The notes: a model not told the origin generated them from the letters alone. 64,000 nucleotides of DNA from Spirochaetia bacterium (GCA_021736525.1 JAIPFR010000001.1:891-64890), one strand, 5' to 3'. Positions 22,057 to 60,429 are shown, counted from the first letter of the stretch. Translations and numbers: made by a program.

Positions 22057-23421
22057 TCATCCGATACTGCCGGTATTCAATGGTGACCGCTTATTGCACA
22101 ATAAACGGAAACGATCTCCTCTGTCGAATTCATGGAGAAACAGTTCAAACGAAGAGGCACCAGGGGAGAGCAAGACACAGCTTGGTGTATCCATGTCATC
22201 ATCATTGAAAGCTATTTCACTCGCAGCATTAAAGGCTTTCTCCATAGAAGAGTGAGGACCGGTAAATTGTATATTTTCAGCAATCAGAAGGGGGATGAGT
22301 TTTCGCGTCAGTGATCCATCTAGAAGATGAACCGTTGCTGATCGCCTGCATGCCTCAACCAGATTATCCAGTTCGAGGTTTTTGTCAGTTCCACCGGCAA
22401 TAAGGTGTACTTTCTGGCTGCTGAACCTGGAAACCGCAAAAAGGGCTGCTTCCGGTACAGTTGCAGCGCTGTCATTAATGAAGGAAATTTTTCTTTTCCC
22501 GCGGAATTGTACAGCCGCTGTCTCTTGTCGATGAGGGATGCCGGGAAAATTTTCCAGTCTTTTGACAATCTGATCGTTTGAAACACCCCAGACTGAGCAG
22601 GCCGATGCTGCCGGGATCAATTCATATGAAATATCAGCCAGTGGTTGAGTTGAGTCCAAGTGAATATTTGCTGAACGATTTGTCTGGAAAAAGAGTATCT
22701 CAGGGGCATCGGCTGCATGGTAGTTTATAATATGTCTGACTTCAGCCGGCGCAACTGCTTTACCGTGGGGTTTTAACAAACTGAATATTTTACATTTATC
22801 TGAAAAATAGTCGTTTAATGAGGCATAAGCATTGAGATGATCAGAAAACAATGATGTGAGAACAGCAAGAGATAAGTATTTACCTTTATTTGAATTATAT
22901 CGGGCAGCATCACGAAGCTGCCATGAGGACATTTCTGCTATAAGTACGGTTTTTTTTCTTTCTTCTGCAGTCATAGCCTCAACTTGCTCGAGTGCGGTAA
23001 AAGGTGATATTCCCATATTGCCCATCAGGATTGGATTTGCATCAGAATTTTCAAGTATGTAGGCTATGGCCGATGCAGTGGTCGATTTACCTTTTGTTCC
23101 GGTAATGCCTATGACAGGCAGTTGAAACAGGGGCAGGGTATAGGAAAAATCACTTTGTACATTTCGGCAGCCGGAAAGAATGGAAAGATCAGGGGCAGCT
23201 GCAGGGCTTTTTATTATCAAATCGGCAGAATGTACCACGTGCTCAGGATGACTTTCTAAATAGTAGGTTATAGGGTAATCTTTCAGCTGTTTAATAGAAT
23301 TCGCTAATCGGGATTTATCTGCCAGATCGGTAACGACGACTGAATGTCCTGCTTTTGCAAAATATGCTGCTGCTCCAGTTCCGCCTCCATGCTGGCCTAA
23401 TCCGAATATCAAAACATTCAT
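22057..23421 (-). CDS. murD: UDP-N-acetylmuramoylalanine--D-glutamate ligase (MurD-type Mur ligase)
   Basis: N-terminal Rossmann-like FGLGQHGGGTGAAAYFAKAGHSVVVTD, Mur ligase P-loop IGITGTKGKSTT; 454 aa; RBS AGGAG upstream. Confidence 0.75.
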   Translation of the reverse strand: MNVLIFGLGQHGGGTGAAAYFAKAGHSVVVTDLADKSRLANSIKQLKDYPITYYLESHPEHVVHSADLIIKSPAAAPDLSILSGCRNVQSDFSYTLPLFQLPVIGITGTKGKSTTASAIAYILENSDANPILMGNMGISPFTALEQVEAMTAEERKKTVLIAEMSSWQLRDAARYNSNKGKYLSLAVLTSLFSDHLNAYASLNDYFSDKCKIFSLLKPHGKAVAPAEVRHIINYHAADAPEILFFQTNRSANIHLDSTQPLADISYELIPAASACSVWGVSNDQIVKRLENFPGIPHRQETAAVQFRGKRKISFINDSAATVPEAALFAVSRFSSQKVHLIAGGTDKNLELDNLVEACRRSATVHLLDGSLTRKLIPLLIAENIQFTGPHSSMEKAFNAASEIAFNDDDMDTPSCVLLSPGASSFELFLHEFDRGDRFRLLCNKRSPLNTGSIG

Positions 23422-23595
23422 GCTGCTCCTGGCTGCTCCTGCGTGCAGAAATTAATTGCTTCCCAGATTTCCCTTACATTATAGTTGGCAGCACCGATAA
23501 TTACAATAATTACTGGTGCTTCACCTGAACCCCTTGACCTCAATAAGCTTAATAGGCATAATGTGCGAGACTTTGAATAAGTAAGGAGCTTAACT

Positions 23596-23685
23596 GTGCC
23601 CTGTGGAAAAAAAAGAAAAAGACATAAGATTGCAACTCACAAAAGAAAGAAAAAATTAAGAAAGAATAGGCATAAGAAAAAATAA
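23596..23685 (+). CDS. 29-aa ultra-basic small protein, candidate bS22-type ribosomal protein (AURKAIP1/mS38-like C-terminal motif)
   Basis: GTG start 8 nt after a perfect AAGGAG RBS. Translation MPCGKKRKRHKIATHKRKKKLRKNRHKKK*. Not in the supplied ORF track (below 60 aa). Confidence 0.5.
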   Translation: MPCGKKRKRHKIATHKRKKKLRKNRHKKK

Positions 23686-23693
23686 AAAGATAA

Positions 23694-23721
23694 TTCCAGA
23701 AGATATACTGATTTTCTGGAA
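23694..23721. terminator. hairpin, possible terminator between small ORF and UDPGP gene
   Basis: TTCCAGAA-12 nt loop-TTCTGGAA. T-rich run on the minus side (TTATCTTTTTATTTTTT), none on plus. Confidence 0.35.
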
Positions 23722-23892
23722 TTGTCAGGATTAGCAGCAGAATGATCCTGCAGCTGTAATGACTCTTTGCTGAGAAGCTGTTCCCGATAGAATACTGAAA
23801 AGTACAGGGAACGGCTTTTTTCTGTCCTTGCTGCAATCAAGTCTAGACAGTATATTTTTGTTACCAGCGTTTATTCTGCTGTATATTCCCGG

Positions 23893-25437
23893 TTAAAGTT
23901 CCAGCGGTTCAGGAACCCATTTTCCTTCTGACAGTCTCATTCCATATGTATGCTCAAGTAAATAGTGAAGACCTCGCTGCATGGCTAAACTGAGATTGCA
24001 GAAGTCTTTGTAGGATCTGTCATGAGACAGCAGCTGCGGTGCAATTTCATCAGCCCGAGATGTCAGAAGCATCTCTGAAAGCATTTTTGCCGCAAGAAAG
24101 CGTTTCGGTTTTTCTACTGCCAGAATCAGAGGATGAGGTATCATCTCAAGAACTTCCCAAGTAATCTGTTCGGCTTGAGCATATTTGCCGGCATCCTTGT
24201 CCTGTTCACTTATTCGTACGGGAAGGTTTTCTATTATAGCATCCAGACTTTTCGTCAGATACCGCAGATCAAAAATACCGGATGCGCAATTGAAAAGTAT
24301 TTCTTTACCAAGCTTTTCTGCTTCGTTAACTGAAGATACCGGGATGGCGGCTCCGATGTCAGCACAGACGAATCGTCCTGATGCAGCGTGCTCTACAAGA
24401 ATCCCACCCTTAACATCTACGGGGGTTTTGCGGGAGAATTCAAATGAAGCCTGGGATCCGTTGAGCACTGTAAGAGCAAGGTGAACCGGGTCAGGAACAT
24501 TGCCAAGATTGTCAATATTAACCAGAGTACTCAAATAGTAACCGTTGGAAAAAAGTTTTTCGTAGACAGGCCGCAGAACTGAAAAATTCTGGCCATGTCC
24601 CCCGGGAAGCGGCAGAAGTGCGTCACGCTTTCCGTAGGCTTCAGTAAATACTTTGCGGGGAAAGCCGACTTCTTTATGGGTCAAGGCGGCAAGAAGCGGT
24701 TGTGTTTCACTTTGAACATTTGTAATGTCAAAACCAATGCGTTCAATGAGATCTATAAGCAGCGGAGAACTGCTGAAGGATTTATATGCTGATTCAAGGG
24801 AATTTGCTGTAGAGGGATTTCTCATTTCAAAAATAGGGATTCGGATTTTTTTGCCGGTATGTTTTTCAGCTTCAAGCATTAACAAGAGCAGCGCCCGCAT
24901 TTTGAGCTCAATAAAAGAAAAACCGGGAGAGCCGTCTGGATTGACATAAGCCGGCACAAGTGCTTTTGGCTTATCTATGCAGTACCCGGCATTCTCCTGA
25001 TAAGATTTTCCAAGAATAGAAAAAAGGGGTGGGAGATAGGAACTGTTACGCTTATCATCTATATAGCTTGTTGCCGACCCGCCGTTAAGAATTCCGTAAG
25101 CTGTTACTCCAAGCAGGTTCAGTCCTAATTTACGTAAATTATTATAATCAAAAGTGACATCATATTTTCCATCAGGTCTGCAGTAATGATCTATAGCAAG
25201 GTCAGGGAGCAGGGAAATAACTCGTTCTACAGCTTTCTTTCTGGACAGAGTCAAGGAGAGGCTGTCAGAGGGATATGCTATGGAAGGAGAACGGGTGTCT
25301 GGTATAAAATACTGGTTATGAATATCCTGTTCCGGGGAAGACTCCGCATTAGCTTTCCGTAGAATATCAAGGGTTGCCTGTTTGTCGATACTATAGTTGA
25401 TGTAGGGTAAGTCGATGATCTCATTTTTTTTTTGCAT
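23893..25437 (-). CDS. UTP--monosaccharide-1-phosphate uridylyltransferase, eukaryotic-type UDPGP family
   Basis: 514 aa. ILNGGSATSY (LNGGLGTSMG-like), NIDNLGN (UGPase NIDNLGA), VDVKGGIL (catalytic KGG) in the UGP2-like order. Confidence 0.6.
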   Translation of the reverse strand: MQKKNEIIDLPYINYSIDKQATLDILRKANAESSPEQDIHNQYFIPDTRSPSIAYPSDSLSLTLSRKKAVERVISLLPDLAIDHYCRPDGKYDVTFDYNNLRKLGLNLLGVTAYGILNGGSATSYIDDKRNSSYLPPLFSILGKSYQENAGYCIDKPKALVPAYVNPDGSPGFSFIELKMRALLLLMLEAEKHTGKKIRIPIFEMRNPSTANSLESAYKSFSSSPLLIDLIERIGFDITNVQSETQPLLAALTHKEVGFPRKVFTEAYGKRDALLPLPGGHGQNFSVLRPVYEKLFSNGYYLSTLVNIDNLGNVPDPVHLALTVLNGSQASFEFSRKTPVDVKGGILVEHAASGRFVCADIGAAIPVSSVNEAEKLGKEILFNCASGIFDLRYLTKSLDAIIENLPVRISEQDKDAGKYAQAEQITWEVLEMIPHPLILAVEKPKRFLAAKMLSEMLLTSRADEIAPQLLSHDRSYKDFCNLSLAMQRGLHYLLEHTYGMRLSEGKWVPEPLEL

Positions 25438-25611: not shown

Positions 25612-25893
25612 ATGAGAACCTACGAATTTACTGTTATTCTTCGAGCAGAAGAAGATGCAGCCGCTAAAGGAAAAGAACTTGTCAAGAAGGAACTGGCCAA
25701 TGCAAACGCGGCTATCCTTAAGGAAGAAGATCTTGGCATACGTGTTCTCGCATACCCAATCAAGAAGGAAGAAAAGGGACGTTATCTCTACATGGAACTT
25801 CAGGCGGATCCTGCCGTTATTTCTGTAATAGAGAAAAACTGTCTTTTGATGAATCCCGTGCTGAAATTCTTGTTTGTAAAAAAAGAATCATAG
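25612..25893 (+). CDS. rpsF: 30S ribosomal protein S6
   Basis: MRTYEFTVILRAEE... canonical bS6 N-terminus; RBS GGAGGGAG upstream. Confidence 0.9.
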   Translation: MRTYEFTVILRAEEDAAAKGKELVKKELANANAAILKEEDLGIRVLAYPIKKEEKGRYLYMELQADPAVISVIEKNCLLMNPVLKFLFVKKES

Positions 25894-26412: not shown

Positions 26413-26802
26413 ATGAGTGAAGAAGCAAAAGCACCTGCTGCAGGCAGCACCAACACTAGACCAGCTCCGCAGCGGCAGAATGATAACAGAAGCTACGGCG
26501 GCGGAGATAACCGTGATCGTGACGGACGGGACAGTCGGGACAGTCGTGACAGAAGACGAGGTCCAGGCGGTCCCAGGCGTCCTGGCGGCAGCGGCATGTT
26601 CAGAAAGAAAGTATGCCGATTCTGCACACAGAACCTTAAGGCTGATTATAAGGATTTTGACGGCCTTAGAAGATTTATTACTGAAAGAGGCAAAATATTG
26701 CCGAGAAGAATAACCGGAACCTGTGCTAAGCACCAGAGAACACTTTCAACAGAAATCAAGAAAGCTCGGGTACTTGCATATTTACCGTTTGAAAAGAAGT
26801 AG
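26413..26802 (+). CDS. rpsR: 30S ribosomal protein S18 with ~60-aa Arg/Asp/Gly-rich N-terminal extension
   Basis: C-terminal 65 aa ([12 protein letters not shown]...[27 protein letters not shown]) is canonical bS18; N-terminus is low-complexity RD/RG repeats. Confidence 0.85.
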
Positions 26803-26820: not shown

Positions 26821-27804
26821 ATGGACAATATACGTAGCCATACATATTATCATTTGGTTGTTTACAGCATTGCAGTAATTATACTGTCAAGGTTTGGTCT
26901 TTTGTTTTATTTTTGTATGGTTCCGCTGCATTTACTGTACAGGAATTACCCTGCAAAAGTGTTTTTCAAGACTGCAGGGATATTGACCGCAGGAATTGTT
27001 CTATGGGATATACTGAAGTATACCGGCATTGGTCTTTCGGGATCAGCCTATTTGCTTGCTGCTATTGGAATGTTTTATCCTGCGATGCTCCTGATGAGCA
27101 CCATGGTCTATTACCTTCCTGCTGTCAGCAGGCGACAGATCAGAATGGGAATTGCCTCCTTAGTTCCCGCTGCAGCTGGAACAATAATAATTGTTCTGCT
27201 TAACGGGGACAATCCGGCGGCCGGAGATGTTATTGATTTCTATTCCCGGATTTTTTCGGAAATCCTTGCATCTGCAATGCCGGGGGCACAGGAACTTGGA
27301 TCAGCAGACTTTCTTTTCCTGCTGGCATTGGAAATAATGAAGGCAACATTTTTGCCTTTCTGGTTTATTATATTCGGGGCAGGAATTTTACTGAGTGAGA
27401 TAGCTGTTCAGAGAAAATCAAGTGCAGCAGGACCGGTAAAAACCTTTCTTGATTATTTTTCGGTATCCGATAAACTTCTTTGGCCGTTTATTGGAAGCTG
27501 GATGTTAGTTTTGCTGGATATAGTATTCGGATTGGGAGCATTTGGCGACTTGATCTGGAATGCCGCTCTTGTTTTCCTTCTTTTTTACGGTACGGCAGGA
27601 ATATCTATTCTATCGTATTGGGGCAGGAAAAAACATTTAAGAATGCACCCGCTTTCGTGGGTTATACTGGCAATTTTTTTGCTGTTTATACCGGGTATAA
27701 ATGTTATTTTGATTATAACGGTTCCTGTACTGGGATTATCAGAACACTGGATCCACTACAGGTTAGCGTCGAAGGAGAAGATAGATGAAAATAATACTGA
27801 ATGA
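26821..27804 (+). CDS. polytopic membrane protein, YybS-like (DUF2232) by position
   Basis: 327 aa, about 8 predicted TM helices. Sits between rpsR and rplI like B. subtilis yybS in rpsF-ssb-rpsR...yybS-(gdpP)-rplI-dnaC. Confidence 0.45.
   Translation: MDNIRSHTYYHLVVYSIAVIILSRFGLLFYFCMVPLHLLYRNYPAKVFFKTAGILTAGIVLWDILKYTGIGLSGSAYLLAAIGMFYPAMLLMSTMVYYLPAVSRRQIRMGIASLVPAAAGTIIIVLLNGDNPAAGDVIDFYSRIFSEILASAMPGAQELGSADFLFLLALEIMKATFLPFWFIIFGAGILLSEIAVQRKSSAAGPVKTFLDYFSVSDKLLWPFIGSWMLVLLDIVFGLGAFGDLIWNAALVFLLFYGTAGISILSYWGRKKHLRMHPLSWVILAIFLLFIPGINVILIITVPVLGLSEHWIHYRLASKEKIDENNTE

Positions 27805-60356: not shown

Positions 60357-60429
<73 letters not shown>

Follow-up and report, generated by a model that had tools for sequence, protein, structure and literature searches.

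An uncalled 29-codon gene in a Sphaerochaetaceae-like spirochaete is a strong candidate for ribosomal protein bS22

The stretch of spirochaete DNA analysed here (64,000 nt, hereafter the window; G+C content 43.8%) carries on its forward strand a very short open reading frame of 29 codons and a TAA stop, preceded by a Shine-Dalgarno motif and flanked on either side by genes on the opposite strand (Table 1). The ORF was present just as the original prediction had described it, and the neighbours named there, murD and a UDP-sugar pyrophosphorylase gene, correspond to a MurD-like Mur ligase and a UDPGP-family gene. Because an in-frame TAA lies 5' of the GTG, at positions 23578-23580, the GTG is the sole possible start codon. 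It had been placed 8 nt after AAGGAG; the G of the GTG is indeed the eighth base past the motif, and the spacer itself is 7 nt. On recounting, 17 of the 29 residues of the peptide are lysine or arginine (12 K and 5 R) and not 19 as first reported, while the count of three histidines agreed. Even so, the ORF stands apart in its composition: among the 1453 six-frame stop-to-stop segments of the window that reach 25 aa, no other contains as many as 15 K/R in any stretch of 29 residues.

Table 1. Features of the candidate bS22 locus in window coordinates, and the PDB chains matched by its predicted product.
Feature	Position	Strand	Details
MurD-like Mur ligase gene	22057-23421	-	UDP-N-acetylmuramoylalanine--D-glutamate ligase in sources
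Predicted sigma-70-type promoter	23534-23562	+	-35 TTGACC 23534-23539, 17-nt spacer, -10 CATAAT 23557-23562; 10/12 consensus matches
Shine-Dalgarno AAGGAG	23583-23588	+	read directly; 7-nt spacer to GTG
Candidate bS22 CDS	23596-23685	+	GTG start, 29 codons, TAA stop at 23683-23685; product MPCGKKRKRHKIATHKRKKKLRKNRHKKK
Hairpin 1	23689-23726	+	perfect 16-bp stem, 6-nt loop, 3 nt past stop; -20.5 kcal/mol, z = -6.4; without U-tract
Predicted intrinsic terminator of the bS22 transcript	23772-23821	+	-21.6 kcal/mol, z = -3.9; G+C-rich core 23777-23815, U6 23816-23821
Terminator stem	23777-23785 with 23807-23815	+	GCUGUUCCC pairs with GGGAACGGC; inner 4-bp stem
UDPGP-family gene	23893-25437	-	
7JIL chain 5	peptide residues 1-29		Flavobacterium johnsoniae bS22 (Fjoh_1533); E 3e-9; 24/29 identical; MPSGKKRKRHKVATHKRKKRARANRHKKK
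9I5V chain 10			entry name 'AURKAIP1/COX24 domain-containing protein'; aligned over peptide residues 1-29; E 5e-9; 25/29 identical; MPNGKKRKRHKMATHKRKKRLKKNRHKKK
8FMW chain V	peptide residues 1-28		Borrelia burgdorferi bS22 (bb0822); E 6.6e-8; 23/28 identical; MPCGRKRKLKKISTHKRKKKRRKNRHKK

The ORF appears to be equipped with transcription signals of its own. From the promoter predicted upstream, transcription would start near position 23569, giving a leader of about 27 nt. The two downstream hairpins that had been proposed at 23694-23721 and 23780-23820 both proved real by folding (23689-23726 and 23772-23820). The first, which is unique in the window, may act as a 3' stabilising stem, and the second is the predicted intrinsic terminator. 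A simple terminator scan of the region returned no terminator, the loop being longer than 8 nt, and the structure was shown by folding. These features point to a putative monocistronic mRNA of about 250 nt that would be bounded by its own promoter and terminator. A search against Rfam found no known RNA family in the region; the sole match in the window was a tRNA at 60357-60429, with no 16S rRNA in the window.

When the 29-residue peptide was searched against all PDB chains with phmmer, exactly three sequences were matched, all of them bS22 proteins of cryo-EM structures and all of them end to end, at identities of 82-86%. For one of the three we infer the organism: 9I5V is probably the Porphyromonas gingivalis ribosome of PMC12123416. 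Since low-complexity peptides can match one another through composition, we permuted the window 29-mer 100,000 times with its composition kept. Identities to the three chains in the shuffled set averaged about 9 and reached at most 16, far below the observed 24, 25 and 23, so it is the order of the residues that matches and not composition alone. The peptide carries every invariant column of a 24-sequence family alignment (M1, P2, G4, K6, R7, K8, K11, T14, H15, K16, R17, K18, K19, R25, H26 and K27) and shares the traits of the bS22 type, namely a length of about 28-31 aa, a very basic composition and the core elements M-P-x-G, K-R-K, T-H-K-R-K-K and R-H-K. A profile built from this alignment matched only the 7JIL, 9I5V and 8FMW chains in the PDB, which is circular since all three were built into it, and the independent evidence is therefore the single-sequence phmmer search. 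In a public protein collection the exact 29-mer occurs, nameless, on three ENA contigs, and its 90%-identity cluster has 151 members, which include Bacteroidota proteins called 'hypothetical protein' or 'AURKAIP1/COX24 domain-containing protein' as well as Chitinophagaceae proteins given the latter name by NCBI. The proposal of a candidate bS22-like ribosomal protein thus gained full-length matches to the bS22 chains of F. johnsoniae, 9I5V and B. burgdorferi, and we regard the ORF as almost certainly a genuine bS22 gene, as judged from its sequence.

A search with a bS22 profile of the DUF1713/AURKAIP1 kind had been suggested as a check on this assignment. Neither Pfam PF08213 (COX24_C, the former DUF1713) nor NCBIfam NF047430 (ribo_bS22) matched the window peptide at E <= 10. 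As a positive control, mycobacterial bS22 scored 46.2 bits on PF08213 and 62.6 bits on NF047430. The structurally proven bS22 proteins of F. johnsoniae and Borrelia, in contrast, scored nothing in Pfam or NCBIfam, and the 9I5V protein reached 11.8 bits in Pfam, where the cut-off is 23, and nothing in NCBIfam. Because proven Bacteroidota and Borrelia bS22 proteins are missed equally, the null results with these profiles carry no weight against membership of the family; PF08213 and NF047430 do not cover the Bacteroidota/Spirochaetota bS22 sequence type.

The peptide had also been likened to the bS22 proteins of both Actinobacteria and Bacteroidetes and to mitochondrial mS38/AURKAIP1. The Bacteroidota part of this comparison held, as described above, but a sequence link to the actinobacterial/mS38 type was undetectable: BLASTP of the window peptide against mycobacterial bS22 produced no alignment, hhalign of the Bacteroidota/Spirochaetota type against mycobacterial bS22 gave a probability of 3.3%, and the 24-sequence family profile did not reach the mycobacterial bS22, mS38 or eL41 chains of the PDB at E <= 10. 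The equivalence of the two types is drawn from published structural superpositions, which put them in the same h44/h45 pocket (PMC7797042, PMC10618245, PMC12123416). The likeness to actinobacterial bS22, mS38 and eL41 is structural and functional, and family membership is not demonstrable by sequence.

Related loci were gathered through the adjacent murD gene, blind to the ORF, which yielded one genome match (L001, from the MAG 'Spirochaetales bacterium M55B182', MurD 77% identical) and nine contigs with MurD homologues 35-88% identical to that of the window. One contig, L002 (MurD 88% identical), was left out, as it has only 97 nt upstream of murD. The nine loci used have MurD proteins 35-77% identical and come from Sphaerochaeta, Parasphaerochaeta, Pleomorphochaeta and MAGs; among them are Parasphaerochaeta coccoides DSM 17374 (CP002659; L005), a Pleomorphochaeta MAG (L008) and an uncultured Sphaerochaeta (L009). 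The named relatives found in this way place the window in a Sphaerochaetaceae-like spirochaete lineage. All nine loci contain a 29-codon GTG-start ORF on the strand opposite murD and divergent from it, with (A/T)AAGGAG exactly 7 nt before the GTG. The sequence AAGGAG-N7-GTGCCNTGYGG is common to all of them, and the GTG is invariant in the ten synteny-defined sequences (the window and its nine relatives). In none of the nine is the ORF among the called genes.

The predicted transcription signals are retained as well. The promoter sequence TTGACC-N17-CATAAT is kept in L001, L003, L004, L006 and L007 despite diverged intergenic surroundings, and in nine of the ten sequences the stop codon is followed, at a distance of 20-130 nt, by a hairpin with a U-rich tract behind it, the stem in L008 having only a 2-U tail. 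The window and L001 hardly differ from the -35 element through to the stop codon, the four differences in the ORF all being synonymous, while the flanks carry indels and many substitutions; the terminator stem and U-tract are invariant too, and the L001 sequence folds alike. Hairpin 1 is partly conserved in L001, as a shorter stem followed by U6, and none was seen in the more distant relatives.

The surroundings of the ORF on its downstream side differ among these genomes. In P. coccoides, Pleomorphochaeta and Sphaerochaeta (L005, L008 and L009), the genes that come next on its strand are rpsF-ssb-rpsR-(membrane protein)-rplI. The rpsF gene of the window begins at 25612, 1.9 kb downstream of the ORF, with one opposite-strand gene between them. 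This UDPGP gene occupies the rpsF side of the ORF in L001, L004, L006 and L007 also, accompanied in the same interval of L004 and L006 by an amino-acid permease/PTS-EIIA fusion, and in the window and L001 rpsF-ssb-rpsR lie beyond its far side. Such proximity to translation genes lends support to the bS22 assignment, although it is not a defining trait. The arrangement in the three named genera, where the ORF ends up about 160-210 nt upstream of rpsF with a terminator-like hairpin between, would also suit a leader peptide or uORF that attenuates rpsF-ssb-rpsR-rplI together with the downstream hairpins and whose product has no function. We consider this very improbable. The peptide stays the same in genomes where the ORF adjoins rpsF and in those where it does not, which argues against a leader, and where a leader peptide would be free to vary in sequence, this one is almost invariant; residue-for-residue conservation across phyla, extending to peptides seen bound to ribosomes, is not expected of leaders.

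The rpsF-rplI operon itself shows some variation. The window rpsR gene (26413-26802, + strand) encodes a bS18 of 129 aa and that of L001 (2574-2951, - strand) one of 125 aa; the bS18 proteins of Sphaerochaeta, Parasphaerochaeta and Pleomorphochaeta have 92-95 aa. In the window protein the Pfam S18 domain (residues 74-124) is preceded by some 70 additional N-terminal residues, among which R, G and D abound, the upstream ATG start being putative. Following rpsR in the window is a gene for a 327-aa multi-pass membrane protein (26821-27804, + strand) without a Pfam match at E <= 1e-5, and the next gene is probably rplI. A membrane-protein gene inside the rpsF-rplI operon is conserved across all relatives, and the L009 gene at this position matches DUF2232.

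It is similarly improbable that the peptide is translated but, despite its similarity to bS22, has its main role away from the ribosome, for example as a polycation that binds nucleic acids or kills microbes. It is extremely cationic, and with a promoter and terminator of its own the gene could be regulated independently. Binding of bS22 can moreover be labile: isolated 30S subunits of F. johnsoniae have lost the protein, but 70S initiation complexes contain it, and a contact with IF3 has been proposed (PMC13000457). Against such a role stand the near-identity of the peptide to ribosome-bound homologues in two phyla, one of them represented by a spirochaete, and the linkage of the gene to the rpsF operon in relatives; no pointer to export or to another role was found.

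Conservation of the reading frame, the lack of which in relatives had been set as a possible refutation of the original prediction, is accompanied by strongly protein-like substitutions. Variable columns in the alignment of the ORFs number 7, 5 and 27 at codon positions 1, 2 and 3, respectively. All internal codons but one show synonymous alternatives, and leucine 21 uses all six leucine codons. Summed over all pairs, the in-frame pS was 0.80 and pN 0.038 (pN/pS 0.048), compared to pN/pS values of 3.0 and 1.15 when the same calculation was made in the other two frames. The peptide is the same as that of the window in L001, L003, L004 and L006 and differs by one to four changes in the remaining usable relatives; in L003, L004 and L006 it has not changed at a single residue, despite MurD identities of only 44-48% and pS values of 0.6-0.9. 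We conclude that the bS22 peptide is under very strong purifying selection.

The same data leave next to no chance that the ORF is an accident of an A-rich spacer that reads as K/R codons behind a fortuitous AAGGAG and makes no protein. Such an origin would be in keeping with the very short length and low complexity of the ORF, with the ease with which A-rich DNA yields AAA, AAG and AGA, and with the lack of a match in the profile libraries. It is refuted by the codon-position pattern: synonymous change is saturated while frame, length, start and Shine-Dalgarno motif are kept in every usable relative, the residue order matches proven bS22 far beyond composition, and no second segment so rich in K/R occurs in the window. 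Recent horizontal copies are excluded by the synonymous divergence of the relatives. Hardly credible, finally, is a real gene on the antisense strand with the forward ORF as its by-product, since the longer reverse-strand ORFs that span the region (95 aa at 23549-23836 and 67 aa at 23637-23840) stay open because reversed lysine codons (TTT/CTT) contain no stops, lie in different frames and range between 13 and 102 aa from one relative to the next, are broken in L001, L008 and L009, and show no conserved frame with low pN/pS among the relatives, the variation being concentrated at third positions of the forward frame, which are non-synonymous for any antisense frame, and this in spite of a 90-aa gene called over the site in the P. 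coccoides record.

That 90-aa call (L005 2620-2892, - strand) has no Pfam match and overlaps the bS22 ORF (L005 2831-2742), with which it shares the strand but not the frame; the call is probably spurious and masks the real 29-codon gene. A separate irregularity was seen in L007, where the ORF (2171-2260, - strand) has H26P (CAC to CCC), replacing a histidine that is invariant in the other copies, and where the sequence turns into a run of N 2 nt past the stop codon. The change may not be a true variant but an artefact of assembly.

To gauge breadth, metagenomes were scanned with a pattern that constrained only the Shine-Dalgarno motif, the GTG and the first eight codons (PCG[KR]KRK), which gave at least 120 loci with an SD, a GTG and an MPCG-type bS22 ORF. 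Among the matches listed, 109 of the 111 complete ORFs encode 28-32 aa, and in these complete ORFs residues 9-29, which were unconstrained, follow K[IM]ATHKRKK.LR.NRHK. At least 19 metagenomic loci have murD divergent upstream, and in at least 11 rpsF follows 249-301 nt downstream. Among the matches listed (L011-L130), neither murD nor rpsF is near in about 94 of the 120 loci; these are probably from other spirochaete families or other phyla. Peptide variants among the same matches include MPCGKKRKRQKMATHKRKKMLRRNRHKSK at 12 loci and the Borrelia-like MPCGRKRKLKKIATHKRKKKKRRNRHKTRA at seven, and two ORFs are cut short, at 15 and 21 aa. As a lesser reading, the Bacteroidota/Spirochaetota bS22 type may extend across Spirochaetota and further phyla and be systematically missing from annotations.

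If the ORF is a bS22 gene, as we believe, it would form a stand-alone transcription unit in which a sigma-70 promoter and a short leader bearing a strong Shine-Dalgarno motif precede the GUG start, the 29 codons and an intrinsic terminator. By homology to solved ribosomes, its product, of about 3.6 kDa, would fold as one bent and very basic alpha-helix. This helix would sit next to the decoding centre, on the subunit interface, in a pocket of 16S rRNA that h44 and h45 form together with h2 and h27, and its C-terminal lysines would reach H68/H70 of 23S rRNA and add an intersubunit contact. The ribosomal location, the stabilisation of h44 and the intersubunit bridge are thus proposed for the window protein by analogy with the literature. 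The B. burgdorferi protein, which was unannotated and starts with GUG, binds h2/h27/h44/h45 and H68, and its gene, bb0822, is among the Borrelia genes without transposon insertion (PMC10618245). In the same study, bS22 alone of the Borrelia ribosomal proteins escaped detection by tryptic bottom-up mass spectrometry (PMC10618245). In F. johnsoniae and P. gingivalis, bS22 lies between h44 and h45 and contacts H70 (PMC7797042, PMC12123416, PMC13000457). Mycobacterium smegmatis without bS22 shows increased kanamycin susceptibility, and Lys-16 contacts the h44 backbone (PMC10081302).

The GUG start is invariant in the ten sequences and in Borrelia despite saturated synonymous sites, and the gene appears to have its own promoter-to-terminator unit. 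These two observations are the reason to entertain, as an unlikely reading, that bS22 synthesis is set apart from that of other ribosomal proteins, the peptide being regulated and possibly sub-stoichiometric, and not a constitutive structural peptide. It would then tune aminoglycoside susceptibility or else the joining of subunits or initiation, the IF3 contact that has been proposed being one possible route.

Earlier publications have described the bS22 family, established where in the ribosome it sits and found it in a spirochaete (Borrelia, 2023; PMC10618245) as well as in mycobacteria and Bacteroidota, so the window gene is an annotation catch and not new biology. The Borrelia study (Sharma et al. 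2023) had predicted that further cases of bS22 would be found, hidden by short length and non-AUG starts (PMC10618245). What is added here is the conservation of the gene across Sphaerochaeta-like spirochaetes, the invariant GUG and Shine-Dalgarno spacing, the purifying selection, the uncalled gene and the blind spot of the profiles. On the evidence of the genomes compared, bS22 probably belongs to the core ribosome of Sphaerochaeta-like spirochaetes. A dedicated profile made from the 24-sequence alignment would close a systematic gap in ribosomal-protein inventories, and as bS22 would sit beside the aminoglycoside site on h44, its presence may bear on the antibiotic susceptibility of spirochaetes.

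Compared with known systems, the window peptide resembles actinobacterial bS22, mS38/AURKAIP1 and eukaryotic eL41 in that all are tiny, very basic helical peptides, placed by published superposition in the same h44/h45 pocket; unlike the Bacteroidota and Borrelia proteins, those of M. smegmatis and M. tuberculosis, mS38 and eL41 have no detectable sequence relationship to it. In the solved Bacteroidota examples (F. johnsoniae and 9I5V) the third residue is usually S or N, whereas that of the window peptide is C. Bacteroidia largely do without SD-led initiation, whereas the window gene has a conserved strong Shine-Dalgarno motif and a GUG start. The B. burgdorferi protein differs from that of the window by five substitutions (K5R, R9L, H10K, A13S and L21R), and it belongs to Borreliaceae and has been seen in the ribosome, whereas the window protein is predicted from the sequence of an uncultured, free-living Sphaerochaetaceae-like spirochaete. 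The two are alike in belonging to Spirochaetota, in their GUG starts, in being missing from annotation and in length (28 vs. 29 aa), and they have in common the MPCG N-terminus, THKRKKK and KNRHKK.
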